Of a stretch of DNA of 64,000 bases, positions 7,135-48,905 are shown piece by piece. The notes under the pieces were generated by a model that saw only the letters and a program-made list of their open reading frames with translations, was not told the origin of the DNA and searched no databases. Each line of letters begins with the position of its first letter. Position 1 is the stretch's first letter. The DNA lies in contig OZ253449.1 in NCBI GenBank assembly GCA_965261345.1, positions 2,272,001 through 2,336,000 on the forward strand, in the 5' to 3' direction. Source of the DNA: Chloroflexota bacterium. Its GTDB lineage: Bacteria > Chloroflexota > UBA11872 > VXNJ01. The translations under genes were made by a program, and so were the position numbers.

Positions 7135-8184
7135 CTATTGCCTCCAAATGAGCGCGACGCCGCTGTAGTGCTCCTTGTCATTTAGAAGACCCTGGTAGGC
7201 GCGCTCTATCTGCTGCGGCGGCATCCGGTGCGAGATCAGCGGTTCTACCTGCAGGCGACCGCGGGCGACCAGGTCCAATACCGTTTCCAGGTTGTGCAAG
7301 GTCGACTCATCGAAGGCGGTTTGCGGCGTTAGCGGGATCAGCCATTCGAGCGATCCGCGAAGCTTTATTCCGCGCCAGTGGATATCTGACAACAGCGGAT
7401 TCATGTCGGCGACGTGCTCGCGGCGTGGTGAACCCAACAGGGTCACCTGGCCGAAGCGGCGCACGAACCGATGGATCTGGGCAAGGATTGCCGATTCACC
7501 AACAGCATCGATCGCGATATCCAATCCGTCGCAAGCTCCCAGGCCGCCCATCTGGGCCTTAACGTCGGCCGGTTCCGGCGAAGCCACCCGCCCGATCCCG
7601 ACGCCCTGCGCCAGGTCGCGTCTAAAGCCCGCCGGATCGATGCCGATCACTCGGCAGCCGGCCAGTTGGAAAAGCTGCGCTGCCATGTTGCCGACCATTC
7701 CCAGGCCCCAGATCCCGACGGTGTCATTGAGGCGCCGGGGGGTGTTGGAGAGCGAGCTCATCGCCACCAGCGGCATGCGGCAGGCGGCGGCGACCGCCGG
7801 GTCGAGGTCGTCGGGGACCTTTGCCAGCAGCGACCCGGCCACGCTCACGCCCAGTCCGGGACCACCGTGGGTGACGAAGTGGACCTGTTGGTGTTTGGCG
7901 AAAGAAAAGACCCGGTCGCCGACCCCAAAGTCTTCGATCTTTTCACCGACTTTGATCACACGGCCGACATTGGCGTACCCGGAGGGCCAGGGATATTCGC
8001 ACCAGGACCCTTTCTCGTAGACCTGCGGGGTCAGGGCGGTGTAGTTGGCCAGCTCCGTCCCGGCGGAGATAAACGTGGCTTCGGTCTCAACCATGACCTC
8101 GCCGGGACCGGGCCGGTCGGCTATCTCGATTTCTTCCAGCAGGACCTGGTTCTTACCTGGCACCAGTACCCGATTTGTGCGCAT
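7135..8184 (-). CDS. MDR-family oxidoreductase (tandem paralog of 6037..7083)
   Basis: ISAGTELA, GYANVG, GLGMVG; near-identical C-terminal motifs to its neighbour. Confidence 0.88.
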   Translation of the reverse strand: MRTNRVLVPGKNQVLLEEIEIADRPGPGEVMVETEATFISAGTELANYTALTPQVYEKGSWCEYPWPSGYANVGRVIKVGEKIEDFGVGDRVFSFAKHQQVHFVTHGGPGLGVSVAGSLLAKVPDDLDPAVAAACRMPLVAMSSLSNTPRRLNDTVGIWGLGMVGNMAAQLFQLAGCRVIGIDPAGFRRDLAQGVGIGRVASPEPADVKAQMGGLGACDGLDIAIDAVGESAILAQIHRFVRRFGQVTLLGSPRREHVADMNPLLSDIHWRGIKLRGSLEWLIPLTPQTAFDESTLHNLETVLDLVARGRLQVEPLISHRMPPQQIERAYQGLLNDKEHYSGVALIWRQ

Positions 8185-8733
8185 CAGAAGACCCCGTCCT
8201 CTATGAAATTACGATTGGCGCCGGACCGCGGCGGCGGGTTGGGCACCAAAGCCGTTCGCCCATATCTTCAACTTATCGATAAAAAAGAGTGGCAAATGGC
8301 GGTAGGGACGGTTACGGTTGAGCGGACGTTGTCATTGGCACGGTCCGCGGCCAAAGGTGGCCGCGCGACACCGGGATCACCAGCGGTGACCTTGAGAATT
8401 CCAAACGCAGGTGGACCACTTTCCGGGGTGTGTTCGCCGGGTCGGACGTAGTTGCGTTTGCGGCGGCAAGGACCTGGGCTTGCTTGGCAGCCGGATAAAT
8501 AGTCGATGCGGTAATCATGGTGCTGCCCATCTGCGTGGACGGTTGGTGCCGACCACGCGGACGGACGAACCTCCCGGAGAGCGCCGGCCGGTGGGCCTGT
8601 TTTTCGCAACGGCGTGCTGATTTTGGGCCCTGGCGGTGATCGCGCTATTGGTTGCGCTTTGGGCCCAAATTCGTAGCCCCCGATAATCTCGGTCGGGCCG
8701 TCGGGCCCAAAACCTGCTTGCGAATTTAGGAAA

Positions 8734-15804: not shown

Positions 15805-16815
15805 TCAGGTCAAGCCAGGCGGTTGATGCTGTTCTGGCCGAAGCGGCTTGCGGCCAGGTTTCCCCAATTCGCGTCCGTTCCAACCTTCCCAGAGGCGCAT
15901 GATTTCCGTGTTGTCGGCTTGAGCCCCCAACAACTGCACTGCTTGCAGCCAAAGGTCGTGACAGCCCTCTAGCAGCGGCGCTTTCAATTCCAACGTTTCC
16001 GCCATCCCCGCGGCAATACCGACATCCTCCGCCATCCCCGCGGCAATACCGACATCCTTTGCCATCAAGCCCAAGGTGAATCCGGAGTTGAATTTGCGCG
16101 AGTAGATTTCCTGCGCAGCCTTGTCCTCGGTTGCCCTATTTCGACCGGAGGATGCGTTCAGAACATTGATCATTTGCGCTGGGTCCAACCCCATGCTCTC
16201 ACCTAACAACAGGGCTTCACATGCCGCTGCCAATCCCGCGGCCGAGACGTAGTTATTTAACGCCTTCATTGCGTGGCCATTGCCGGGCCCTCCCACTTCG
16301 CATACGTTGCAACCCAACTTTTCCAAAATCGGACGGCAGCGAGCGATCTGCCGCGATTCGCCGCCGACCATAATCGTCAGCGAACCCGAGCGCGCGCGAG
16401 CGACACCGCCAGAAACGGGTGCATCCACCATGGCAACGCCTTGGTGGCGCAGAACTTCGGCTAGCTCACGTGTACCCACCGGTTCTGAGCTGCTCATGTC
16501 GATGAGCACGCTTCCGCGCCCAAACCCTGCGACCAGTCCCGGGTCGCCCGCATTTCCAAGTGCGACCTCACGCACGCTGCTGCCGGTGGGCAACATCGTA
16601 ATCACTGCGTCGCTGGCGTCTGCCAGCGCCAACCGGTCAGTTGCAACCTGGACACCATGTTGTGACGCAAACGATTCGGCTACGTCCGTACGAGCGTCCA
16701 TTACGGTTAGGCGGTAGCAGCGCGCCAGCTGTCGCGCCATCGGCCACCCCATATTCCCCAGGCCCACAAAACCGATCCTGGATATCGAGCTCGTTGCTCC
16801 CTCGGTCACCGCCAT
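15805..16815 (-). CDS. NAD(P)-dependent beta-hydroxyacid dehydrogenase (3-hydroxyisobutyrate dehydrogenase family)
   Basis: IGFVGLGNMGWPMA, DAPVSGG, KALNN, FTLGLMAKD; start uncertain; internal 10-aa duplication. Confidence 0.85.
   Translation of the reverse strand: MAVTEGATSSISRIGFVGLGNMGWPMARQLARCYRLTVMDARTDVAESFASQHGVQVATDRLALADASDAVITMLPTGSSVREVALGNAGDPGLVAGFGRGSVLIDMSSSEPVGTRELAEVLRHQGVAMVDAPVSGGVARARSGSLTIMVGGESRQIARCRPILEKLGCNVCEVGGPGNGHAMKALNNYVSAAGLAAACEALLLGESMGLDPAQMINVLNASSGRNRATEDKAAQEIYSRKFNSGFTLGLMAKDVGIAAGMAEDVGIAAGMAETLELKAPLLEGCHDLWLQAVQLLGAQADNTEIMRLWEGWNGRELGKPGRKPLRPEQHQPPGLT
15998..16057. repeat. Perfect 30-bp tandem duplication within the dehydrogenase gene
   Basis: TCCGCCATCCCCGCGGCAATACCGACATCC x2, encoding DVGIAAGMAE twice. 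Confidence 0.95.
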
Positions 16816-18775: not shown

Positions 18776-20527
18776 GATCACGTCCCCTGGAGTGGTGTAA
18801 GAGCACCCGCTTGATCAACTAAGCCAACGCGATGACAAAGGGCCATCGTGTAAACCTCTACGGAGTCACTTCACTTACTTCGTCGAGGAACCATCGATGG
18901 CCCAACTTGATTATCAGACCTTGCTTGCCCTTATCGCCAAGCAAGGGTTTGACAGCAGCGAATTCGTCCGCAGCGCCGTACGGCACGCCTACCAGGAACT
19001 TATTGACGCCGGCCTGGCCGAAAACATCGGCGCCAAACCGCACGAGCGCAACGGCGAGCGTCGCAATCGGCTTTGATGGCTCGCGCAAGCGCACCCTCTC
19101 CACCCGGGCGGGCGACATCGAGATTGCCCTGCCCAAGCTGCGCCAAGGCAGCTACTACCCCGAGTTCTTGGAGCGGCGGCGCCGCATCGACCAGGCCCTC
19201 TACGGCGTCATCATGACCGCCTACAGCAAGGGCGTCTCCACCCGCAAGGTCGACAAGCTGGTGGAGGCGATGGGAGTAAACGCCGGGATCTCCAGGTCCG
19301 AGGTGTCAAGGATCTGCAAAGGCATCGACGAGCTGGTCAATGCCTTCCGCGAACGCGATCTCTCGCATACGACCTTCCCGTACCTCTATCTCGACGCCAC
19401 CTACGTAAAAGCCCGAAACGCGCATGCGGTAAGGTCGCGGGCGGTGGGCATAGCAATGGCCATAAACGAGAACGGCCATCGCGAGCTGCTGGGGCTTGCA
19501 ATCGGCCACAGCGAAGCGCAGGGCTTCTGGGAGGACTTGATCGCCTCCCTGGTAACGCGCGGTCTATCCGGCGTGCGGCTGGTGATCTCCGATGGGAACC
19601 AAGCCATCGGCAACGCGGTGACAAAGCTTATTCCCGAGGCCGCCTGGCAGACGTGCAGGACACACTTTGGGCGCAATCTTCTGCCAAGGGTCAGAAGCGG
19701 CGACCGCGGGCTGGTGGCAGCCGGACTGGCGTCGCTGTTTGGGCAGGCTGACAAGCAGAGCGCCATGGACGCCTTCGGAGATTTCGCCGATCGCTTAGAG
19801 CGCAAGTATCCGGAACTGTCCACGATCCTCGAGGACTCCGAGATCGCCCTGACTGCCTACACCGCCTTCCCGCCTTCGCACTGGCGCAAGATCTGGTCCA
19901 CCAATCCCCTAGAGCGCGTTATGGGCGAGCTAAAGCGCCGCACCCGGGTAGTACAGCTCTTCCCCGACGATGACTCGGTCCTGCGCCTTATCGGAGCGGT
20001 CCTAATTGAGCAGAACGACGAATGGCTCGCATCCGAGCGCCGCTATATGTCCAGGCACTCGATGGCCTTAATCGGCCAACCCCCATCTCCGGGAGAGAGG
20101 CAGTCCCCGCTGGCATTGCCGGCGGGGTAGCAACCGCCGCCGGGGGCCGTAGCGCCCTCCAGGGAAATGGAAGGTCGTGCGCCCGGCTTGGCGCTAGCTG
20201 GGCCTAAATAAGGATCACTAGCGTCGAATTGGGCCGACTTTCCCAACAAACCCGGCCCGGTGAGCCCGAATGCGAGCCGTTACGGGCCGGGGCCGGCCTT
20301 CGGACCCATGGAAGCCCATATGACCACGACCGCGCCATGGTCGCAACTGGCAAAATGATGGACGCCTTACCGGCAGTCGCCGTCACAGCCAAGGACTCGA
20401 AACTCCCCCAGCAAGCCCCAGCAACCATCTGCCGGCCCTGCCGGCAGCTGCAACTCTGTAGAGTTGCAGCTGCCGAACCCCTAAACGTAGAGGACGGCTT
20501 AGTTACACCACACCGTGGGACACGTCC
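18776..20527 (+). mobile_element. IS256-family element, copy 1 (1752 bp)
   Basis: Imperfect 25-bp IRs (GATCACGTCCCCTGGAGTGGTGTAA / TTACACCACACCGTGGGACACGTCC); 8-bp TSD CGAGGCCA at 18768-18775 and 20528-20535. Confidence 0.97.
18897..20130 (+). CDS. IS256 (Mutator-type DDE) transposase, split by a +1 frameshift at 19071-19076
   Basis: N-terminal 59 codons end at CTT TGA; the +1 frame carries YLYLDA, ISDG, WQTCRTHF and STNPLER. Confidence 0.88.
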
Positions 20528-33252: not shown

Positions 33253-34014
33253 ATGCGTCCAATGAATCCCGGTTTGCGATTGATGCTGGTCGCTGCACTC
33301 GCGCTGCTTGCATTCGCCGGCATGGCGGCCGGCGCCGTGGCCCTCATCGGACCGGGGGGCCCAGCTGCACCGGCACCCTCGGGCCCACCGGAACGCTCCG
33401 CACCCAATCCCGAACCGGCCATTAACACAACCCCCAGCTTCCTGATCGAACCAGTTTTCGACGGCACGGGCGTACCAAGCGGTCCGGCGGAACGCGCGGA
33501 TACCGATCCGGTCGAAACCGACGCACCCAAACCGACCCCGACGCCATCGCCTGACCCAGCACCCACGCCCAACTATTGGCAGGACGGCGATCGCCGCATG
33601 CGGTTGCACCCGTTTGCGACCCCCACCCCCGCTCCCGCAGACGCCAAATCGGACGGCGAGACCGAGGTGCCCCTCACCCGAAGCGCGGCCGCATCCCAGC
33701 CGGGGACCGCACCGTCGCAAAACCCGGCCGATCCGACGCCGCAGTTCCAGTCCGACTCCGGAAATTCGTTATCCCTTCCGGGCGGCGTACTGGTCGTGCT
33801 GAACGCGGACTGGGGAGCAGATGAAGTGGATGAATTCTTCGCGTCCAACGAGATAAAGCCAGCGCAATTAACGGCAATGCCCCCATTGACCAACACGTAT
33901 CTGATCGCAACGCCGCCCGGGTTGGTATCGCTCGAATTGGCCAATTCGCTGGCCGGCCAATCCGGGGTGATAGCGGCAAGTCCAAACTGGCAGCGCGAGA
34001 TCACGACCAAGTGA
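33253..34014 (+). CDS. Secreted Pro-rich protein, putative stand-alone propeptide/external chaperone of the downstream S8 protease
   Basis: Signal/anchor helix, Pro-rich linker, YWQDGDR, and a C-terminal domain LPGGVLVVL...SLELANSLAGQSGVIAASPNWQREITTK; start reassigned from 32656. Confidence 0.7.
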   Translation: MRPMNPGLRLMLVAALALLAFAGMAAGAVALIGPGGPAAPAPSGPPERSAPNPEPAINTTPSFLIEPVFDGTGVPSGPAERADTDPVETDAPKPTPTPSPDPAPTPNYWQDGDRRMRLHPFATPTPAPADAKSDGETEVPLTRSAAASQPGTAPSQNPADPTPQFQSDSGNSLSLPGGVLVVLNADWGADEVDEFFASNEIKPAQLTAMPPLTNTYLIATPPGLVSLELANSLAGQSGVIAASPNWQREITTK

Positions 34015-37000
34015 ACGGATCCAGGGTCAATTGCTCGCAGCACGCTGCGCGTTGCAGTAACAGGTTGCGCCAGCGCGCCCAGGAGAGTCACGTTAGGCCG
34101 CAATTTAACCATCGAAAAACGCCGCGGAAATTCGAAACCGTAAATCGACCCACCCCGTTCTGGGGGACCCCGCCCGCGGCATGCGGTCGGCGGATCTAAG
34201 GGCCCGGTCGGGCGGGGGCGCAGGCCCTCGCGCACCGCGATCGTTGCGATCCGGGACCCGATGAGGTTGGGCATGGCTCGGGCTACCGCCGAGGCGGCGC
34301 GGTCGGGTGCGAGGTTGGTACTCGTACTCATGGTCGTGTTGGGTTTGGGATTGAGCGGGCAGCCGTCGACCCTGGGCCAAGTGATGCATGATCACGGCGA
34401 CGACCGCGATCATGCGACCGCGATAAACCTGGGGGATTCGACCGCCGGGACCATCGACCCGGCGACCGACGAGGACTTTTTCAGGTTCGAATTGACCGCA
34501 TCCACGGGTGTGCGGATTTTGACCAGTGGCAATCTCAACACGGTTGGACAACTGCAGGGCTCCAGTGGGGCGGTGCTGCGGACCGCCGATGACATCGATT
34601 ACCGCGGCGGAGAGTTAAATTTCGAGATCGCCAACCAGCTCGCCATTGGCACTTACTATGTCCGGGTTCGCAGTTTTCGGGCCGACCCACCGGCCCTGAC
34701 CGGGGATTTCACCCTCTCCGTAAGTGAGTTACCCGACCAGGGTGACACCATCGCGACCGCCGGCACGCTGCCGCTGGATGGCTCAGTGGATGCCCGAATC
34801 CTGCCGGGCACCGACGTGGACATGTTCGAGCTGGTGCTATCGAGCGCAACCGACGTGGAGATCTACACGACCGGCGAGCTGGATACGATCGGCAAGTTAT
34901 TGCACCCAAACAGTGACATTACCGAAAACGACGACCGCACCTTGGATGCCGCGGGCCGCAACTTTCTTATCCGCGAGTCCCTTTCGGCCGGAACCTACTA
35001 CGTAAGCGTCGAGACATTCCAGTCGCAGAACAATCGGACCTTTGGGCCGTACACCCTACACGCCGATTCGATTGCCGACGCCGGCGATTCGCGGTCACAG
35101 GCGAAGGCAATATCGGTCGGTGATTCAGCCGGGGAGACGATGTTCGATTCCGAGGACGTCGATTACTTCCAGTTCACGCTCTCCCAGCAGACAGACTTGC
35201 GGGCTTACACGACCGGGTTCGTAAATACGGTGGGCGTACTGGAGAACCAGGGCGGAACGGAGCTGGCGCGCGGCGACGACTGGGGCTTTCAGCGGCTTAC
35301 CCGGAACTTCCACATCCGGCAAAGTCTTGGCGTCGGTACCTACTACCTCAAGATCGAGAGCGTCGGCGAACGCGCCGGCGATTACGAGCTGCACCTAGAA
35401 GCCGCCCCGCCGGGGTTCGATCCAACCGCGCCGGCGCACACGCTTTCGATGAATCGGGCGGCCAGCGGAAGCATTTCATCGATTTCAGACTTCGACTTGT
35501 ACGAGTTCGCGCTATCTGCGGCGGCGGAGGTCGAATTCGACCTCGACTCGGATATATATTTCTCGCTGGTGACCAGCTTGTATGACCAACATGGAGCGGA
35601 AGTCCCCGGCGGTGGCGGCGAATACGGACTCGACGCCGGTACCTACTACTACCGCGTAACGTCCGGGTTCCTGATCCGTGCCAGCGGCACAGCGGTGGTC
35701 GCCGGTCCGTACGCTGTCACGCTGCGCCGCAATTCAAGTTACGAGTCGTTCTTATCCAGTTGCACGGCGATCACAACCGCGCATAACGACCCGCTTTATG
35801 GATGCCAGTGGCACCTTGAAAACCGCGGAAGGGGTGGGGGCAGGACAGGTCAGGACATCAACGTCGAAGATGCCTGGGAGAACACAAAAGGCGAAGGCGT
35901 TAACGTCTTAATCGTCGACAACGGGCTCGACCCGGATCACGAAGACCTTGTCGAGAACGTCGATGCGAGTCGCAATTTCGACGTGCTCGGCGACGATCGC
36001 GTCCTGCGGCCGCAGTTCACCCACGGGACCGCGGTGGCTGGGTTGATCGCCGCCCGCGACAACGACCTGGGCATGCGCGGGGTGGCCCCTCGCGCGAGCC
36101 TGTATGCTTACAACGCATTGGCCCAAGGCACCGACGCGGACTTCCTCCAGGCCATGCTGCATGAGCAGGATCAGACTCGGGTTTCCAACAACAGCTGGGG
36201 CGCCCGCGAAGGCTCGGGTCTTGATACCGCTCCCTTTATCTGGGAACTGGCGCTTGAACAGGGACTTACGGCCGGGGCGGGCGGCAAGGGAATCGTCTAT
36301 GTCTTCTTCGGCCGGTAACGGCGGTTCGATCGACTATTCAAATCTTGAGGAATACGTCAATCACTACGGCGTGATCGCCGTCTGCGCGGTCGATGACCGC
36401 GGCATACGGACTTCCTATTCAGAATCGGGATCGAATCTGTGGGTGTGCGCCCCCTCGCGCCAGAGCGGCCGGCAGGGAATCGCAACCACCGACAACTACA
36501 GTCGCTACCGTGAATCTTTCGGCGGGACATCGGCGTCGGCGCCCCAGGTATCGGGCGTGGCCGCGCTGGTGCTGGCGGCCAATGACAGACTGACCTGGCG
36601 CGACGTCAAGCTAATCCTGGCCTCGTCGGCACGCCAGAACGATCCGTCCAACAGCGACTGGTTGGCGGGTTCTCCCAAGTACCGCACCGAGAACGACTCC
36701 TACCGGTTCAATCACCGCTACGGATTCGGGGTGGTCGATGCCGCGGCGGCGGTGGAATTGGCCCTTAACTGGGTGAACCTGCCCCCGTTCCAGGAAATCA
36801 CGGCCGTTTCCGGCGATCTGGATCTTGTCATACGCGATTCGCCGCGAGACCCGGTGGAAGTGAAGCTGGCCCTGCCGACCGGCGTTTCGTTCATCGAATT
36901 TGTTGAATTGCAGATCGACTTTTCCCACGAAGCGGTGCGCGATCTCAAAATCGAGCTTGTATCTCCGGCCGGAACGACCTCCGTGATCGCTCCCGACACC

Positions 37001-40000
37001 GGAGCTTCCACGATCGGCTGGGATGGGGAGTTTCGCTTCGGGTCGGCCCGCCACCTGGGCGAGGACGCGGCCGGCGAGTGGACCCTGCGGATCACCGATC
37101 GCCACCGCGTTGACTCTGGTCGGTTGCGCAGCTGGGAGATCATCGCCTACGGTCATCGCCGCGCCCCCGGTCAGCCCACCCCGATTGCGGCGGCCGCCCT
37201 CGATCAGGCTCTGAGCGTCGATTGGCATGCGCCGGAGTCGGCGCAGCTCTCCGAGGTAACTGGATTCGATCTGCGCTTCATCGAGACCTCCGCTGACGAG
37301 ACCATCGATAGCAACTGGACGGTTCGCAGCAGCGTCGCAACGGCAACGCAGTCTCGCTACCGCCTGACGGGACTTAGCAACGGCACTTCATACGACCTCC
37401 AGGCACGGGCGTTCAATTCCGACGGGTCGGGCCCGTGGTCGAAGGCATTCATCGGAATACCTGCGTTGGTTCCAGATATCGCCTCGATATCCGGCATCAC
37501 ACCCGGCAACCAATTGGCCACCATAACCTGGAGCGCGCCAACCACGCCCGCCGGAGCTCCGATAACTGGATACGATCTTCGTCATATCGGGGCGGACAAA
37601 GAGCGCCCCGAGGACGGCGACTGGACCACCGTTTCGAACATTTGGTCGAGCGGCGATCTAACTTACTCGGTCTCGGGACTTGAAAATGGTTTCGAGACCC
37701 GATTCCAGGTCCGGGCCCGCAACAGCAACGGCGCCGGCCCCTGGTCGCCGGCCGAATCTTCCAAACCGCGTACCGCCCCGGCGGCGCCGACAGTCGACCC
37801 GGTCACCGGTTACAACACCCGCCTGCAGATCTCATGGTCAGCACCATCAGATGACGGCGGGGCCGAAATCATCGCCTACCATCTGCGCCGCATCGAGAGC
37901 GCTGCCACCGACAAGAGCGATGCCAACTGGACCGGCGTCGACAACATCTGGCGGGCAGGTCCGGGAGGCTTTGCCTATTCACTCACAGGGCTCGCCAACA
38001 GCACCCAGTACGACGTGCAGATTCAAGCTGAAAACGCCTCCGGGCGGGGCGGCTGGTCAGTTGTGCGCAAGGGCACTCCCGGCAACAAACCGGACGCGCC
38101 CGCGATCGATGCGGTATTGGCCGCTAGCGCCAGCCTGACCGTTGCCTGGACTGCTGCATCCGCGGGAGGGACCGCCAACCGCTACGATCTGCGTTACAAA
38201 CAGAGCTCCGACCCAGATTTACCGTCTTCATGGACCACCGCAAGTTCGATCTGGACAACCGGGTCGGGAACGCTGGAATACGAGCTCACCCGGCTGGAGA
38301 ACGGCACTTCCTATGACATCCAGGTGCGCGGCGGCAATTCCTCCGGTGCTGGGCCTTGGTCGTCCTCGGCCAGTGCCATCCCACAGGGCGTTCCCGGAGC
38401 ACCAGACCTCGACAACGTGGTGCCCGGAACGCGGCAACTCACGGCCTCCTGGAAACGACCCGACAGCGATGGCGGGTCGGAGATCGCCTCGTATGATCTG
38501 CGGCACAAGAAAAGCGCTGATCCCGACGAACCTGCTTCCTGGACAGAGGTATTGATGGTTTGGAGCACCGGTGCGGTAGCACTCGAATACGAAATCACCG
38601 CCTTAGAGAACGGTACTTCCTACGACGTCCAGGTGCGTGCCGTCAACGCAATCGCTCCGGGACCGTGGTCGATTTCCGAATCCAAGATCCCTGGTGATGC
38701 GCTCGGCCCGCCACTAAACGTAGTTGGGAAGGCGCAGCAACGGGCGCTCGAGATCAGCTGGGGCGCACCGGCGGGAGCATCCGGGGTCATCACCTGGGAG
38801 GTTCGCCACATACAGAGCGATGCCACCGACCGCGCCGACGAGAACTGGGAGAGCGATGGCCAGCTGATCCGGTCGGCGCCATACCGCCACATGATCTCCG
38901 ATCTTTTGCCGGCGACCAACTACGACGTTCAGGTCCGCGCCTTCAATGCCAATGGGGCGGGGCAATGGTCAGCTGTGGCCAGCGGCAGGCCCTACGATCC
39001 GCCGGGACGGCCCGGTTTGGCACCGCTGGTACTCGAGTCACAGGCGGTTACGATCCATTGGACCAGGCCCGTTGATGACGGCGGCGCCGACATTACCGGT
39101 TACGACCTGCAGCACTGGCGGGGCGATGCGCCCAGCGCGAATGTGAACTGGAACCTTCGATCCAGCATCTGGCAGGTGACCAGGGATTCGAAAACGAGTT
39201 TCCGGCTGGGCGGATTGCGTAACGGCAGCCGCTACTGGGTCCGATTGAGGGCGGTAAACGCCGCCGGCGAGGGATCTTGGTCGAGTGCCCGATACGGGGT
39301 TCCACGAACGGTCCCTGGTCCACCGCCCAAACCCGGCGTGCAGCCGGGTCAGTGGGCGCTCGAGATCAATTGGACCGAGCCGCGCGATGACGGCGGGGCA
39401 AAGGTCACTGCCTACGACCTGCGTCGCAAGCAGTCAAGCGCACCGGACGAGCCCCAGTCCTGGACGGACGTTTTCGACATCTGGACCACCGGGTCCGGGG
39501 ATCTGGAATACACACTCGGCGGCCTTGACAACGGCACCTCGTATGACATCCAGGTCCGGGCGGTCAATCCGGCCGGCCCTGGCACCTGGTCGGTGACTGG
39601 AAAGGGCATCCCCCGCACCACCCCGGGGCGACCGGCGATTACCGCGGTTGAAGCGGTCCACCAGAGCCTGGAAATTGGATGGACGTCGCCGCTAGATAGC
39701 GGCGGTAACGAGATCTCCGCCTACGACGTTCGTCGCAAGCGGACTCTGGATCCTGACGTTCCGGCCTCCTGGAACGAAATTTTAGGCGTGTGGAAGAGCG
39801 GTGAATCAACAGATCTCACGTATCAGGTGGGCGGGCTCGTCAACGGCACCGAATACGACGTGCAGGTACGTGCGGTCAACGACGCCGGCGCCGGGACATG
39901 GTCGCTGAGCGATAGCGGCACCCCTGTCACCGTGCCGGGAGCGCCGGCGATCGTGTCGGTAGAGCCTTTTGACCAATCGCTGGAATTTAGTTGGTTACGA

Positions 40001-41492
40001 CCTACATTTGACGGTTTTGCCGGCATCGACTCGTACGACCTGCGCCACAAGAAGAGCAGGGATCCGGACCTCCCGCGCTTCTGGACCGAAGCGATCGGGA
40101 TCAGAACCGGATCCGGTCGGCTCGAGTACACGCTTACCGAACTTGCCAACGGGACAGCCTACGACCTGCAGGTGCGTGCGGTCAACGACGCCGGCGCCGG
40201 GGGCTGGTCGGCGACCCGCGCAGGCACGCCCCGGACTGCTCCCGATCCACCCAGCATCTCATCGGTGACCCCGGGAGATAGGTCGCTAACGGTCCGCTGG
40301 CAGGCGCCGCCCCAAAACGGGGGCGCGGAAATCACGTCTTATGACCTGCGCAGCAAGCGCAGTCAGGACCCGGACGTTCCATCTTCCTGGATAGAGGAAC
40401 TCGAAAAATGGACTACCGGCGCCGGCGCGCTCGAGTTCACGCTTACTCAACTTGCCAACGGCACTCTTTACGACGTCCAGGTGCGGGCAGAAAACAGCGC
40501 CGGCGGGTCGGGCTGGTCCGGGACCGCGCCGGGCACACCCGTCGGAGTGCCGTTGGCGCCGGCGATCACCAACCTGGCCGCCGAGGACCGGACGCTTACC
40601 GTTGCCTGGGACCCGCCGAGCGACCTGGGCGGGAACACCCTTGAGGGTTATTCGATTCGCTACAAGGCAAGCAGCGCCCCCGACACCAACCGCAGCTGGA
40701 CCGATTTGATCGATGCCTGGCGGACCGGCACGGCACTGGAGTATTCGATCGATCAACTGCAAAACGGCAGATCCTATGACGTGCAGGTTCGCGTCGAAAC
40801 CGACGCCGATCCCGGACCCTGGTCGCATCTGCGCAGCGCCACCCCCAGGACCGTGCCGCCGGCCCCCCAAGTCCAAAGCCTGGATCCACTCGACCGCTCA
40901 CTTTTAGTCAAATGGCAGGCCCCGTCCGGGAACGGTGGAGCCGAAATAACCGCCTACGACATCCGGTACAAACGCCAATCCGATCCCGATCAGCCCGGTT
41001 CCTGGGCGGAAATCGAAGGTATTTGGCAGACTGGCGGCAGGGCGTCGGAATATATCCTTTCGCCGGGTTCTGGGTTGACCAACGGCACCGCCTACGACGT
41101 CCGGCTGCGGGCGGTCAATATCGCCGGATCTGGGCCCTGGTCGGGATCGGCGCCCGGCACACCGGCGGCGCTACCGCAGGCCCCGGTTCCGATCGCGGCC
41201 AAGCCCGGTCGGGGATCGCTGGAGTTGAGTTGGAATCCACCGGCCAGCGATGGCGGCAGCGAGATCATCGCCTATGACCTGCGCCACAAGAGGAGCAGCA
41301 GCCCCGACACCGACTCCTCCTGGACCCTGTTCGATCGGGTCTGGGAGATGGGCGACGGGGCGCTCGAACACGATCACGTCCCCTGGAGTGGTGTAAGAGC
41401 ACCCGCTTGATCAACTAAGCCAACGCGATGACAAAGGGCCATCGTGTAAACCTCTACGGAGTCAATTCACTTACTTCGTCGAGGAACCATCG

Positions 41493-42726
41493 ATGGCCCA
41501 ACTTGATTATCAGACCTTGCTTGCCCTTATCGCCAAGCAAGGGTTTGACAGCAGCGAATTCGTCCGCAGCGCCGTACGGCACGCCTACCAGGAACTTATT
41601 GACGCCGGCCTGGCCGAAAACATCGGCGCCCAACCGCACGAGCGCAACGGCGAGCGTCGCAATCGGCTTTGGCGGCTCGCGCAAGCGCACCCTCTCCACC
41701 CGGGCGGGCGACATCGAGATTGCCCTGCCCAAGCTGCGCCAAGGCAGCTACTACCCCGAGTTCTTGGAGCGGCGGCGGCGCATCGACCAGGCCCTCTACG
41801 GCGTCATCATGACCGCCTACAGCAAGGGCGTCTCCACCCGCAAGGTCGACAAGCTGGTGGAGGCGATGGGAGTAAACGCCGGGATCTCCAGGTCCGAGGT
41901 GTCAAGGATCTGCAAAGGCATCGACGAGCTGGTCAATGCCTTCCGCGAACGCGATCTCGCGCATACGACCTTCCCGTACCTCTATCTCGACGCCACCTAC
42001 GTAAAAGCCCGAAACGCGCATGCGGTAAGGTCGCGGGCGGTGGGCATAGCAATGGCCATAAACGAGAACGGCCATCGCGAGCTGCTGGGGCTTGCAATCG
42101 GCCACAGCGAAGCGCAGGGCTTCTGGGAGGACTTGATCGCCTCCCTGGTAACGCGCGGTCTATCCGGCGTGCGGCTGGTGATCTCCGATGGGAACCAAGC
42201 CATCGGCAACGCGGTGACAAAGCTTATTCCCGAGGCCGCCTGGCAGACGTGCAGGACACACTTTGGGCGCAATCTTCTGCCAAGGGTCAGAAGCGGCGAC
42301 CGCGGGCTGGTGGCAGCCGGACTGGCGTCGCTGTTTGGGCAGGCTGACAAGCAGAGCGCCATGGACGCCTTCGGAGATTTCGCCGATCGCTTAGAGCGCA
42401 AGTATCCGGAACTGTCCACGATCCTCGAGGACTCCGAGATCGCCCTGACTGCCTACACCGCCTTCCCGCCTTCGCACTGGCGCAAGATCTGGTCCACCAA
42501 TCCCCTAGAGCGCGTTATGGGCGAGCTAAAGCGCCGCACCCGGGTAGTACAGCTCTTCCCCGACGATGACTCGGTCCTGCGCCTTATCGGAGCGGTCCTA
42601 ATTGAGCAGAACGACGAATGGCTCGCATCCGAGCGCCGCTATATGTCCAGGCACTCGATGGCCTTAATCGGCCAACCCCCATCTCCGGGAGAGAGGCAGT
42701 CCCCGCTGGCATTGCCGGCGGGGTAG
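41493..42726 (+). CDS. IS256 transposase, split by the same +1 frameshift (41667-41672)
   Basis: N-terminus in ORF 41493.., DDE core in ORF 41428..42726; junction CTT TGG. Confidence 0.88.
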
Positions 42727-43037
42727 CAACCGCCGCCGGGGGCCGTAGCGCCCTCCAGGGAAATGGAAGGTCGTGCGCCCGGCTTGGCGCTAGCTGGGCC
42801 TAAATAAGGATCACTAGCGTCGAATTGGGCCGACTTTCCCAACAAACCCGGCCCGGTGAGCCCGAATGCGAGCCGTTACGGGCCGGGGCCGGCCTTCGGA
42901 CCCATGGAAGCCCATATGACCGCGACCGCGCCATGGTCGCAACTGGCAAAATGATGGACGCCTTACCGGCAGTCGCCGTCACAGCCAAGGACTCGAAACT
43001 CCCCCAGCAAGCCCCAGCAACCATCTGCCGGCCCTGC

Positions 43038-43071
43038 CGGCAGCTGCAACTCTGCAGAGTTGCAGCTGCCG
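43038..43071. repeat. Perfect 34-bp palindrome in the IS256 3' non-coding region (one mismatch in copy 1 at ~20442-20475)
   Basis: CGGCAGCTGCAACTCTGCAGAGTTGCAGCTGCCG equals its own reverse complement. Confidence 0.95.
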
Positions 43072-44717
43072 AACCCCTAAACGTAGAGGACGGCTTAGTT
43101 ACACCACACCGTGGGACACGTCCTCGAACACACTCAGTCATTGGCCGGCAGCACATCGTTTAACGTGCAATTGCGTGCCGTCAACGCTGTCGGACCCGGG
43201 CCCTGGTCGGGTTCAATCACCGCCACAACCGGTGCCCGTGGTGGTGGTGGAGGTGGAGGTGGTGGCCGGCGTCCGCCTGAACCGGTCCTCCCGTCGATCG
43301 AATACACCCTCAAGGTGCTAGATAACCGCTTCGAGAAAGCACCGGGCAACCTCGACCTCCAACACAACATCCCCGACCTGGAGGTAACCCTCCCCAACGG
43401 GGAGGTGGTAACGGCCGATTTCCTGGGTCACTTCCTGGAAACTGGTGAGCTAACCCGCTGGGGCTATCCCACCTCTGAGGTCCTGGTACTAGAGGATGGG
43501 ACCCTGACCCAGTTCTACCAGCGCGGGGTGGTGGACTTCCACAACCTTGGATCCGGCTGGGTGGTGGAACGCCGCCTGGCCTGGGACTACGTCGGCGGTG
43601 GCGCCGGCGGATCGCCCGACCAGGGCGTAGAACCCGGAGTTACCAATCCCCACCCGGGCACCCTCCTGGGTCCCTGGGGCCACAAGGTCTCTGACTTTGC
43701 CATCGATGGAACCCAGATCGGCTTTGCCGGCTTCTTTAATTCCCTGGGCGGAGTTGGCGCCTTCGGTTTGCCCAAGACCGATGCCCGGGAGGATACCGGA
43801 GACCTGGGCACCTTAAGGGAACCAGACAAGACCCTGGGCTTTATCCGGCAGTACTTCCAGGCGGCAATCTTCCAGTTCAATGCGGCCGGTGCCATCGAAA
43901 TTACCCTGCTGGGCGATACCCTGCGCGGCGTTCTGGTGCCCAACTTTGCCGAGCATCCCCCATTTACCAGGGCAGAGCAACTGGTACGGGTGCAGGCATT
44001 TAAGCCCTACGCAATCCCGCAACTGGCCGACGCCTGAGGAGGTTCGCAAAAATCGCTGGCGTGGCCGATTCGTCGCCGCTTGGCGCCGGGGTACCGGCCG
44101 TGCAACGATTGCAACGAACGCGGATTTTGGGCAATAGACGTCGTTTTGACCGATGCCGGCCAAACACATGGCCCCGGTCCGGTCCAGACCCGGCTTTCGC
44201 GGCTGAGTCGTGATCTCGATTGCATGCCGAATTTACGCCACTGCGGGCCCCATAGACAGGGTCGGGCAGTGGCAAGAGCCGATCTTCAACCCCTACCGGA
44301 TGCGATCACCAGGCTTGATACCCGGTGGTGGGCAATGGCCAGCTCGTAGAAATTTTTCACCTGGTGCTTGTGGGCAGGATTTGTGCGTTTATCTATCAGA
44401 CGCCACATGGTGTTGCGCCGTTTTCCAACCCGCCCAATCATCGCGACCCGTGCGGCGCGGAATACAGCGACGATCCCCATGTACCGGCAATTTGGCGGGC
44501 CGGCAGTCAAGCTTTGGTTTGCGCCAACAAATTCAATCTGAAAACAGGTCCTCCGCGGACCGGCGGGGGGACTGAGAAAGCATTGTTCACGGTCACTTAA
44601 AGGTTTTTTTCCGTCACCAAGGGCCCACCGGCGAATGAGGCGGGTTCGCACGTTTTCTGACGGTATTCGCAATTGGCCTCATTTGGTAACCCCGGGGCGG
44701 ATCAATGAGTCGAATCG

Positions 44718-46650: not shown

Positions 46651-47418
46651 TTATCCGGTCAGCGGCGCCACTCCTTGCCCGGCCATCGCCTGGGTTAAGC
46701 GAATGCTCTCACCCGAGGTCGGGTGGGCATGGGCGTGGTGGAGTAGTCTGTCCACGGTCGCATTGGCCAGTGATTTGGGCAGGATCTCGTCAAAGCCCGA
46801 CGGATGCAAGTTCGAGGAGACGGCCACCGAGCGCCGTTCGTAGGCGGCGTCAACTACCCGGAAGAACGCCTCGGCGGTCTCCTGGCCTACCGGCAGCAGC
46901 CCGATGTCGTCGATGACGATCAGGTCCGCCTTCAAAAGCTTTCTTACCGCCCTGCCGACCGAGTCATCGACCCGGTGGCGCTTGACCAGCTGTCCCAGCT
47001 CTTCCAGCGCGAACCAGGACACCCGGTAGCCGCGCTCTACCGCCAGTTGGCCGAGAGCCTCCAGGAAATGGGACTTGCCGGTACCGGACGGACCGTATAG
47101 GACCACGTTCTCTTTGCGTTCTATCCATTCCAGGGTCATAAGCGATCGCCGGGTGGGTTCGGGGATCGAGGAGAGCTCGCCGTCCCAGCTGTCAAGCGTC
47201 TTCCCTGAGGGAAACCCGGCCGCCTTGCGGCGCAGCTCCCGCGACGAGGCCGCCCTCCCGGCGATCTCCTCGTCCAGGAGCGCCTTCAGCGCCTCGGCCG
47301 GATCCCAGCGCTGCGACTTTGCGGTCCTAAGCAGCTCCGGGGCGGCCTTTCGCATGTGCGGCAGGCGCAGGGTGCGCAGCTGGCCCACCACCTCGTCGAT
47401 TACCTGTGGGGGCCTCAT
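46651..47418 (-). CDS. istB: IS21 helper ATPase
   Basis: GPSGTGKSH, IVIDDIG, VDRLLHH; ATGA overlap with istA. Confidence 0.95.
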   Translation of the reverse strand: MRPPQVIDEVVGQLRTLRLPHMRKAAPELLRTAKSQRWDPAEALKALLDEEIAGRAASSRELRRKAAGFPSGKTLDSWDGELSSIPEPTRRSLMTLEWIERKENVVLYGPSGTGKSHFLEALGQLAVERGYRVSWFALEELGQLVKRHRVDDSVGRAVRKLLKADLIVIDDIGLLPVGQETAEAFFRVVDAAYERRSVAVSSNLHPSGFDEILPKSLANATVDRLLHHAHAHPTSGESIRLTQAMAGQGVAPLTG

Positions 47419-48905
47419 CGGTCGCCTCCGGTTGCGCCGAAGTCCTGCCAGCGGCCGGTGCCGTCCTGCAGGAACGAGTCCTCGGACGCCTGGTACAGCG
47501 GTCCGCTCGAGGCGGCGGCGATGGAGGCGATGTCGCCGAAGCCGAAGCGCCCCACCTCCGACGCCACCCCCAGGGCGGCATCGATTGCCTCACAGCCGTC
47601 AAGGCGCGAGAGTTCGACTATCTCCTCGAGCTTCTCCTTCAGCCGGGCGGCACCGGCCGCGCAGGCGGCCCTGAGCCATACCGCCGCGCCGGGGCCGATG
47701 GCCAGGAACTCCTTCTCTACCTGGTTGCGCGGCCTTGGCCGGCGTGCCAGCGGTCCCGACGGAGTCTTCGGATAATGGCTATCGACAACTACCCGCTGCC
47801 CGCGGCCGACCTTCCGGTGTCGGGCCACCTCGATGACGCCGTGATCGGTCTCGGCGCTCACGATCACCATAGCGCCGCGTTCGCGCACCCAGACGATCTC
47901 CTCGCTATAGATGTGCGGCACCGAGTACCAGGCCGATCGCCAGGCCACCAGGGAGGTGTCGGAGACGGTGCGGGTCTTGCCCAGGGCGACGCTGAAGACG
48001 CGGTTGGGCAGAGGGTGCAGGGAATCACGTTCGATTGCGAGCATTTCCATCGGGGGGCGTTTGGTGATCGAGTGCTCACGGGTGTTAACGCGCCGCATGA
48101 ATTCATCGCAGGCGTCGGCCAGCTCGTTCCAGGACGAGTACTCCGGCAACAGGTTGTGATCGGTGGGGACAAGATCGGCCTTGGCGATTTTCACGGTCGC
48201 CTCGGAACCGCCCTTCGTGGCCGGATCCGCTATCTGGCAGGTGGCGATCGCGCAGCCGTGGAAGCGCCCGAACTTGACCATCAGCGGGTGTCTGACGGCG
48301 ATGCTGGCCACGAATTCTTTGGAGACGGTCTTCTCGTTGTCGGTGAGCCAGTTGGAGGGCACGCCGCCGAACCAGGACTGGGCCTCGGCGAGGCAGCCGA
48401 TCAGGGTCTCCAGTCGGCGGTCCCGGGTCGGCAGTACCACCCGGTACCTTGACCAGGACAGCCAGACGCAGAAGAGGTTGCTCGCCTCCCTGTTTACCGG
48501 CGGCCCCTTGGCCCAGTCCCACTGCGCCCACTTGCCCGGTTCGGTTATCCAGGGCCGAAATACCCGGCGGTTTTGCTTTTTGTAGGCCTGCTTGGCTTTT
48601 GCCACCGCCCGGCGGGTGGTGCGTTCAGAGCCCGTGTAACCCAGCTTCATGAGTCGTTGGTGGCACTTGTCGGCCCTTATCCGGCCGCGCGATTGTTGCA
48701 CCAGGTCGTCGATAAGGGGGCGGTGGGGGTCGATGAGCGATAACCGGGGCCGGCGCACCGGTTCTCCCAATTGGCCCAGCGCGCGCTTTTGCACGTAGCT
48801 GGCCACGGTGTGGTGCGAGCAGCCGCATTCTTGGGCCGTGGCCCTAAGTGAAAGGGTGCGATCGTAGACCTTGAGAATCCGCATTACTTCCTCCGAAGAT
48901 TTCAT
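47415..48905 (-). CDS. istA: IS21 transposase
   Basis: N-terminal HTH, AQWDW, LTDNEKT, KGGSEATV. Confidence 0.95.
   Translation of the reverse strand: MKSSEEVMRILKVYDRTLSLRATAQECGCSHHTVASYVQKRALGQLGEPVRRPRLSLIDPHRPLIDDLVQQSRGRIRADKCHQRLMKLGYTGSERTTRRAVAKAKQAYKKQNRRVFRPWITEPGKWAQWDWAKGPPVNREASNLFCVWLSWSRYRVVLPTRDRRLETLIGCLAEAQSWFGGVPSNWLTDNEKTVSKEFVASIAVRHPLMVKFGRFHGCAIATCQIADPATKGGSEATVKIAKADLVPTDHNLLPEYSSWNELADACDEFMRRVNTREHSITKRPPMEMLAIERDSLHPLPNRVFSVALGKTRTVSDTSLVAWRSAWYSVPHIYSEEIVWVRERGAMVIVSAETDHGVIEVARHRKVGRGQRVVVDSHYPKTPSGPLARRPRPRNQVEKEFLAIGPGAAVWLRAACAAGAARLKEKLEEIVELSRLDGCEAIDAALGVASEVGRFGFGDIASIAAASSGPLYQASEDSFLQDGTGRWQDFGATGGDR

Follow-up and report, generated by a model that had tools for sequence, protein, structure and literature searches.

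A probable separately encoded prodomain of kexin-like proteases in Chloroflexota and other uncultured bacteria

Separately encoded prodomains of subtilases have so far been known, in essence, from the protease ASP and its partner ORF2 in Aeromonas and a few related gammaproteobacteria (PMC5638518). ORF2 is both a chaperone needed for the maturation of ASP and its temporary inhibitor (half-maximal inhibitory concentration 84 nM), carries the C-terminal residues Gln-Pro-Lys, of which the terminal Lys is located at the catalytic centre of the protease, and is encoded downstream of asp (PMC5638518). Here we describe a comparable two-gene arrangement in a stretch of 64,000 nucleotides (nt) from the Chloroflexota bacterium assembly GCA_965261345.1 (contig OZ253449.1, positions 2,272,001-2,336,000), hereafter referred to as the window; coordinates are relative to it and features lie on the + strand unless stated otherwise. 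The window contains a gene, here called X (33253-34014), with a predicted product of 253 amino acids (aa), and directly downstream of it the gene of a kexin-like protease of the S8 family. In our view X is likely the prodomain of this downstream protease, produced from a gene of its own and exported independently. An earlier note on the same DNA had proposed a separately encoded prodomain or chaperone for a propeptide-less kexin-like S8 protease, and this proposal is now supported by the genetic linkage, the occurrence of fused forms, the ending of the protein, its predicted fold and a predicted complex, its chaperone part resting on analogy. A limited literature search retrieved only the work on ASP/ORF2 and, both citing it, a survey of Bacillaceae subtilases and an unrelated paper on TPP1 of Dictyostelium, so that the X family appears to be undescribed in the literature covered.

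According to the translation of its open reading frame (ORF) the X protein starts with a hydrophobic segment, a signal peptide or signal anchor (33253-33351; MRPMNPGLRLMLVAALALLAFAGMAAGAVALIG), the hydropathy of which peaks at residue 10 (Kyte-Doolittle 17-mer value of 2.47). Based on the translation, the alignment and AlphaFold2, this segment is followed by a Pro-rich linker (33352-33738) with a Pro content of 27% over residues 41-100, which includes the motif YWQDGDRRMRL (33571-33615). A second linker separates the motif from a C-terminal domain of about 90 aa, which reads ...LPGGVLVVLNADWGADEVDEFFASNEIKPAQLTAMPPLTNTYLIATPPGLVSLELANSLAGQSGVIAASPNWQREITTK and ends directly at the stop codon. 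This domain consists of a prodomain-like core (33739-33990; from ...PQFQSDSG... via LPGGVLVVL to ...SPNW), delimited by AlphaFold2, the structural search and the profile, and of a tail of seven residues, QREITTK, that occupies 33991-34014 together with the stop codon. The translation and the AlphaFold2 fold therefore confirmed what the earlier note had read in the co-oriented upstream gene, namely an exported protein with a prodomain-like C-terminal domain and an end in ...REITTK-stop.

The X domain is widespread. Its profile matched 1,050 cluster representatives at E ≤ 1e-3, including 734 at ≤ 1e-10, and among 114 candidates 58 proteins with a length comparable to that of X have the C-terminal domain conserved. 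The invariant core reads PVF(R)SxSGG-LMTLPGGV...W...FF..N.I.........N.F.VET.PGFPSLELAN.LA.Q.GV..SSPNW. About 50 residues ahead of the core the family shares the consensus YTWxDGDR(T)xRVxLQ (columns ~320-345 of alignment A1), in which W109, D111, G112 and D113 are invariant or almost so. AlphaFold2 modelled this motif as a beta-hairpin with a predicted local distance difference test (pLDDT) value of 61-68, followed by a disordered stretch. The X family is thus large and lacks an existing annotation, and its pattern lies well beyond chance.

The protease gene is co-oriented with X and begins after an intergenic gap of 246 nt. Its translation indicates a signal-peptide-like N-terminus of its own (34261-34380; MRLGMARATAEAARSGARLVLVLMVVLGLGLSGQ), a segment that is absent from the fused forms described below, and four PPC-like repeats of about 110 aa each (34390-35820), which were recognised by eye in the translation and by models (Pfam PPC, PF04151, 1.1e-11 over two stretches; NCBIfam FDP_fam, NF038127, 1e-08 over three stretches). 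In the first protease ORF (34261-36318) these repeats pass directly into ...TTAHNDPLYGCQWHL and the S8 domain, with the mature start at NDPLYGCQWHL, and the protease matched neither Inhibitor_I9 nor any other prodomain model at E ≤ 0.1. Translation and Pfam therefore agree with the earlier description of a chain running from a signal peptide through four PPC-like repeats into the mature domain with no recognisable prodomain.

The N-terminal half of the S8 domain including the catalytic Asp and His (35890-36303) covers positions 1-148 of the PF00082 profile (2.2e-16). The C-terminal half with the motifs SAGNGG and GGTSASAP (PF00082 positions 150-288, 1.7e-15) and the P-domain (PF01483, 5.2e-18) are found in the +1 frame at 36308-37144, the P-domain corresponding to residues 201-283 of the piece 36296-41407 and lying directly behind the catalytic domain. 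All of the S8 motifs DNG, HGT, AGNGG and GGTSASAP are therefore present in the window, split over two frames. In the protease relatives D48, H83 and S252 are invariant (48/48) and the oxyanion residue N181 is found in 47 of 48. The nearest solved relatives of the intact ortholog are kexin (8.8e-47), furin (1.6e-40) and ASP (5.4e-38), with subtilisins at 1e-17 or weaker. Judged by its sequence the protease is kexin-like (S8B), a type which the catalytic triad, the P-domain and the nearest solved relatives all fit. At the positions aligned with the S1 acids of furin, which we take to be D258/259 and D306 and for which the catalytic residues served to check the offset, Asp or Glu was found in 39 and 42 of the 48 relatives, respectively.

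The association of X with such a protease was assessed by searching genome stretches encoding a relative of X with the protease pieces of the window, and the best 80 of 106 such stretches make up the set of loci considered here. X is located directly upstream of, or is fused to, a protease with PPC-like repeats, S8 domain and P-domain in 77 of the 80 loci, a result that bears out the gene-pair co-occurrence which the earlier note had suggested as a check. In 74 loci the protease is encoded by a separate ORF directly downstream on the same strand, while in three (L020, L055, L071) it is fused into the X ORF; one further locus (L021) has the protease directly upstream of X. In many of the split loci the protease frame is already open ahead of the X stop codon or opens no more than a few tens of bases away from it. 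The closest relative, locus L001 from a Chloroflexota metagenome-assembled genome (MAG), likewise has X split from a protease that is intact. From the S8 domain through the P-domain a single open frame was found in 74 of 77 loci; the differing frames in L018, L028 and L031 and the open protease frames that begin only about 1-1.7 kb past X in L015, L026 and L065 suggest that broken protease copies may occur elsewhere. Most of the loci belong to Dehalococcoidia/Chloroflexota MAGs, with a minority from Acidimicrobiia, Binatia, Holophagales, Tepidiformaceae, Candidatus Multivorans and one Pseudomonadales MAG. A scan for promoters and terminators between 32900 and 34400 of the window found nothing, which says nothing on co-transcription. 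As to expression, none of the 23 runs listed was an RNA run holding the sequence.

Some loci are arranged differently. In L021 (3729-8603) the order is protease then X, as in asp-orf2, the protease being contained in two overlapping ORFs and X ending in Gln. Three loci (L033, L056, L068) have two X-protease pairs each, on opposite strands and pointing apart, and L024 has one X followed by two tandem S8 genes.

Among the 83 X copies of the 80 loci, X is separate in 80 and fused N-terminally of S8 in three. Likewise, a single chain combines an N-terminal X with PF00082 in 14 of the 19 longer matches. The order in the fused forms is X, PPC-like repeats, S8 and P-domain, and a second signal peptide is absent. 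Over all 222 X-bearing proteins gathered, X is located at the very C-terminus in 202 and internally in 20. On a FastTree phylogeny of the X core the fused state requires six changes, and since at least three of these changes are forced by well-supported branches, fusion or fission happened several times. The earlier note had also argued that placing the prodomain in trans frees the N-terminus of the protease for binding domains. This finds no support, because the PPC-like repeats lie between X and S8 even where fused forms keep all three in one chain.

The end of the X protein is strictly defined. All 80 stand-alone copies of the loci stop exactly seven residues past the PNW motif, with Lys as the last residue in 56, Arg in 21 and Glu, Gln and Asn in one each. 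The tails were counted in 75 copies by motif parsing (K 53, R 17, one each of E and Q, and three fused copies) and in 8 further copies from the printed tails (K 3, R 4, N 1). The consensus of the tail is R/T at P6, E at P5, V/A/L/F at P4, E/T/V at P3, A/T/P at P2 and K/R at P1, and in the wider protein set 173 of 202 C-terminal X copies end in Lys or Arg. The encoded C-terminal Lys of the window protein is predicted to represent the P1 residue. At the corresponding position some of the fused forms have Arg or Lys followed by Gln (...EVGTR-QDPGE...) and others have Gln.

The fold of X was predicted by AlphaFold2 from an alignment of 52 rows. The core adopts a beta-alpha-beta-beta-alpha-beta arrangement (pLDDT 90-98), with two short strands ahead of it and a less confident N-terminal hairpin. 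In a structural search against 48,161 representative PDB chains the single match at Z ≥ 8 was the prodomain of PC1/3 bound to furin (9fid_D; Z 8.1, root mean square deviation 2.9 Å, 71 of 71 residues including the tail). Eight further subtilase prodomains or inhibitors were matched at Z 5.8-6.4 (8gko, 8c4x, 3bgo_P, 1v5i_B, 4ne9_C, 3whi, 3t41, 6mw4), among them the inhibitor POIA1 (1v5i_B, Z 6.0) and PCSK9 (4ne9_C). The predicted fold is therefore one that a prodomain could have, and it is matched best by a prodomain, but the fold is a common one and the margin is small. A search with language-model features of residues 160-253 of X yielded clusters in which a part of the members carries PF18492 ORF_2_N (score 0.91, 16% of the cluster members) or PF22148 Fervidolysin_NPro-like (0.90, 11%). 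These cluster matches serve as leads only; on this placement a very distant common origin of X and prodomains in general is possible.

Since the catalytic domain of the window protease is frameshifted, the complex was modelled for the cognate pair of L001, using its S8 domain plus P-domain (479 aa) and residues 55-153 of its X, which leaves out the hairpin motif, with alignments of 48 rows in matching order. The complex scored 0.83, 0.84 and 0.84, compared with 0.00 for the best of three controls; the partner had a pLDDT of 86 and at least 98% of the contacts were common to the runs. Of 157 solved complexes 116 attain the score mark applied here, as do 2 of 215 mismatched pairs. On the protease side the modelled interface comprises D48, H83, G250-T251-S252, G180-N181, the SWG strand and two surface helices, on the X side the sheet and every tail residue from 143 to 153, with the P4 residue I150 placed against W141 of the SWG strand. 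In the model X thus adopts the canonical binding mode of a prodomain product. The earlier note had named a C-terminal tail in the active site as the supporting outcome of such modelling, and in the L001 pair the tail is indeed placed on the catalytic triad.

Several observations weigh against X being a prodomain of the protease. RRM, ACT and other ferredoxin-like folds reached Z 6-7.5 in the structural search, little below the top prodomain, and a Foldseek search of the PDB with the X model yielded no match at E ≤ 0.001 and generic ferredoxin-like folds only. At the sequence level the window protein (P0001) has no match to Pfam or NCBIfam at E ≤ 0.1, and none of 48 X members matched Inhibitor_I9 (PF05922), ORF_2_N (PF18492) or Fervidolysin_NPro-like (PF22148) at E ≤ 10, the Pfam scan of these members at that threshold giving scattered chance matches only. 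A profile search of the PDB sequences with X returned two chance matches, to Pup ligase (E 0.6). The complex score may partly reflect the memory of solved prodomain complexes and indicates likeness and not binding. The acidic S1 positions are not invariant, and in the aligned set they show no visible co-variation with the two non-basic tails. Residues other than Lys or Arg (Gln, Asn, Glu or others) occupy the predicted P1 position in 29 of the 202 stand-alone proteins and in some fused forms. Where X is fused, it is set apart from S8 by PPC-like repeats of about 450 aa, which is unusual for an intramolecular chaperone. Two of the 80 loci (L063, L076) contain an orphan X with no S8 gene within 8 kb. 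As to a function in the host organism itself, the local protease is a pseudogene, as described below. The orphan X genes are each found at ~7800-8430 of their stretch, in L063 beside a major facilitator superfamily (MFS) transporter and in L076 beside an M19 dipeptidase and an RCC1-repeat protein.

As a rule, secreted subtilases and kexins depend on a prodomain for folding, and the model scan revealed no other prodomain in the protease. Both points count against X being a dedicated tight-binding inhibitor only, which would provide latency or self-protection while the protease folds unaided or by means of its PPC-like repeats. The fold, the tail and the predicted interface would suit such an inhibitor as well as a chaperone, the stand-alone inhibitor POIA1 is among the fold matches (Z 6.0), and the fused forms place X at a distance of about 450 aa from the catalytic domain, which points in the same direction. 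However, the near-obligate adjacency in a 1:1 ratio, often with overlapping frames, is what would be expected of a folding partner, and ORF2, as the nearest functional precedent, is required for maturation besides inhibiting (PMC5638518). Overall, a role as inhibitor only appears unlikely to us. We regard it as still less probable that X is a surface tether, an adaptor or a substrate of the protease, with an active-site contact that is incidental or absent. The N-terminal hydrophobic anchor and the long Pro-rich stalk, the lipobox-like starts of some relatives and the conserved YTWxDGDR hairpin, to which no role is assigned, would be in line with this explanation. It leaves, however, the strict ending seven residues past PNW in Lys or Arg (77/80) without a reason and does not agree with a predicted interface that is centred on the catalytic triad; tethering and a prodomain function can, moreover, coexist.

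The two-gene layout could also be a local artefact, if a once-fused gene had been split by a nonsense mutation or frameshift in the course of the decay that affected the protease. Two lesions in the local protease, 11 insertion sequence (IS) copies in the genome and the fused forms known from elsewhere could be taken as signs of this. Yet 80 of the 83 copies, from 80 loci and many lineages, stand alone with an identical end point, the downstream gene encodes a separate signal peptide that is missing from the fused forms, and the closest relative, L001, is likewise split with an intact protease. A local split-gene artefact is hardly conceivable and was rejected on the basis of the locus arrangement, the L001 pair and the shared ending seven residues past PNW.

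The protease gene of the window is interrupted in two places. An alignment of the DNA with L001 revealed a frameshift by one extra T in GTCTTC-T-TCGGCC (36304-36308, about position 36307), located in the S8 domain just ahead of the oxyanion Asn motif; across this site the intact ortholog of L001 reads ...GKGIVYVFSAGNG... uninterrupted in one frame. The +1-frame piece (36296-41407) contains the rest of S8, the P-domain and the 13 FN3 stretches of the stalk (37196-41371; PF00041, 3.3e-135). Within the last FN3 repeat an element of 1,751 bp is inserted (41372-43122), encoding a transposase of the IS256/Mutator family (PF00872, 1.9e-106). It has terminal inverted repeats of 19 nt (41378-41396 and 43099-43117) and is flanked by target duplications of 9 bp (41363-41371 and 43123-43131). 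Target duplications of IS256/Mutator-type elements typically measure 8-9 bp. By its transposase, inverted repeats and target duplication the element in the stalk is of the IS256/Mutator type. The protease gene's severed 3' end follows at 43123-44037 and comprises the end of the last FN3 repeat, a Gly run and a C-terminal domain of about 270 aa; it is continuous with the protease in L001. This domain (LPSIEYTLKVLDNRF...), located behind a run of about nine Gly residues and conserved in L001 (~15900-16757), was not matched by Pfam and could be an envelope-binding module.

The extra T is reproduced with 0 differences by a contig of run X1, which is probably the genome's own sample and hence not independent. 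In a related strain from a different study (run X6, about 90-95% identical) the extra T is absent at a depth of 12.2 and the IS site is empty, with a joint of 41362 to 43123 and nine shared letters; both lesions are therefore real and recent. The genome (2.39 Mb) contains 11 near-full copies of the IS that are at least 99.3% identical, two of them in the window (41372-43122 and 18832-20127), and the depth of the IS in run X1 is about 50 compared with 5-7 in its flanks. The genome has one copy of X, the ORF of which is intact, and one copy of the protease gene, which is a pseudogene. Since the protease is inactivated twice, the local X-protease system is most likely dead. The earlier note had referred to the S8 domain as one to be repaired; the split of the frame stands, but the damage is larger than this implied, as the stalk is disrupted by an IS besides the frameshift. 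Further downstream a pair of the IS21 type is encoded on the - strand (46651-48902), consisting of an IstB-like ATPase (PF01695, 4.3e-52) and, beside it, a 495-aa ORF with helix-turn-helix and Mu-transposase C-terminal domains.

The computations themselves yield the linkage and the fusions as well as the fold and the interface predicted for the complex, and the parts that X may play in folding, inhibition and release are modelled on subtilase prodomains and on ASP/ORF2. X and the protease would be exported separately, X with its hydrophobic segment and Pro-rich stalk and the protease with its own signal peptide. Outside the membrane the X domain would dock on the two surface helices of S8 and template its folding as an intermolecular chaperone. 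The X tail would occupy the substrate cleft in the manner of a product of cleavage, its encoded Lys or Arg being placed in S1. The complex would thereby be born inhibited, with no autoprocessing step; as X ends at the would-be cleavage site, autoprocessing would not be needed. Protease activity would presumably set in upon the degradation or release of X.

With regard to its attachment, a hydrophobic N-terminal segment was found in 158 of 188 stand-alone X relatives with a sufficiently long N-terminus. Lipobox-like starts (LAGC, LAAC, LIAC) are present in the relatives P0011, P0030, P0032, P0058, P0110, P0111 and P0155 and suggest a lipid anchoring in part of the family. Taken together, the hydrophobic N-termini in most and the lipobox-like starts in other members indicate that X may be membrane-tethered. 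At the start of the core (33739-33753) most X relatives have PVFRS, whereas the window protein and L001 have PQFQS (alignments A1/A4). PVFRS could be an internal basic cleavage site that frees the prodomain.

A more far-reaching, tentative picture, which we consider possible but rather less than probable as a whole, joins these features. In it the prodomain would be a genetically 'pre-cleaved', membrane-tethered protein on which a naked giant protease folds and at the cell surface remains parked in an inhibited state up to the destruction of X, with the anchor or lipobox and the Pro-rich stalk holding X in place. The encoded Lys or Arg end would uncouple folding from catalysis, the X domain would work in cis or in trans, even across about 450 aa of repeats, and the YTWxDGDR hairpin may provide a second contact to the protease or a trigger of release.

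The local significance of the system is small, because the protease gene of the window is broken in two places, and the interest lies at the level of the family. X would represent a second family of separate prodomains, which is unrelated in sequence to ORF2, considerably larger, with 1,050 clusters at 50% identity, and found mainly in uncultured Dehalococcoidia, plus some other phyla. The occurrence of the same domain both stand-alone and fused offers a clean natural experiment, and X could serve to find out if prodomain-assisted folding can do without autoprocessing. On the practical side, the family could help in annotating about a thousand 'hypothetical proteins', the X tails could allow the P1-P4 specificity to be predicted for giant surface proteases that are uncharacterised, and the expression of X-linked proteases would call for co-expressed X.

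Compared with ASP/ORF2 (PF18492; complex 3wqb), the system shares a propeptide-less kexin-like S8 protease with a P-domain and a small, separately encoded partner. It also shares a basic C-terminal partner residue at the catalytic centre, for X in the prediction only. Unlike ORF2, X has a Pro-rich stalk, an N-terminal anchor and fused forms, and shows no detectable sequence kinship to ORF2, since none of the 48 members match PF18492 and ORF2 is not found by the profile search of the PDB. In contrast to the order of asp and orf2, X lies upstream of the protease in 77 of 80 loci, and the lineages concerned are mostly Dehalococcoidia/Chloroflexota instead of Aeromonas. The X-linked protease is, moreover, far larger than ASP, with its N-terminal PPC-like repeats and FN3 stalk.

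A search for PF18492 in the window genome gave no match. In the genome of L058 a single weak match was obtained (E 0.16), and sub-threshold matches occurred in one of 400 sampled genomes of the class to which the L058 genome belongs. A gammaproteobacterial genome (G128, with loci L082 and L083) has two kexin-like genes, each followed by an ORF2-like protein of 219 or 261 aa; these proteins fall just under the cut-off of ORF_2_N (27.5 bits) and end in ...YQPQ and ...YHPQ and not in Lys. An hhalign comparison of X with the two proteins resulted in a probability of 0.2-0.3%. ORF2 was not among the 50 matches listed in the structural search, which does not count as evidence for a difference between the two folds. 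The likeness to ASP/ORF2 that the earlier note had pointed out therefore holds as an analogy, but not as a relationship, considering the missing PF18492 match, the hhalign probability below 1% and the reversed gene order. X is thus analogous to ORF2 but falls outside its family.

With the cis prodomains of furin, PC1/3, kexin, PCSK9 and subtilisin BPN'/E, X shares the order of secondary structure elements and, in the prediction, the docking surface and a tail that passes along S4-S1 as far as the catalytic Ser in the manner of a product-like inhibitor. As in kexin prodomains the P1 residue of the tail is basic. Unlike these prodomains, X has its own gene, ends at the would-be cleavage site, is unmatched by the sequence models, has extra N-terminal strands and the hairpin motif and is separated from the catalytic domain, where it is fused, by about 450 aa of PPC-like repeats. 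X further resembles the I9-type inhibitor POIA1 of Pleurotus ostreatus in being a small free protein of prodomain fold the C-terminal tail of which binds a subtilase, as predicted in the case of X. We know of no stand-alone I9-type inhibitor that is genetically paired with a prodomain-less protease, whereas X nearly always adjoins one.

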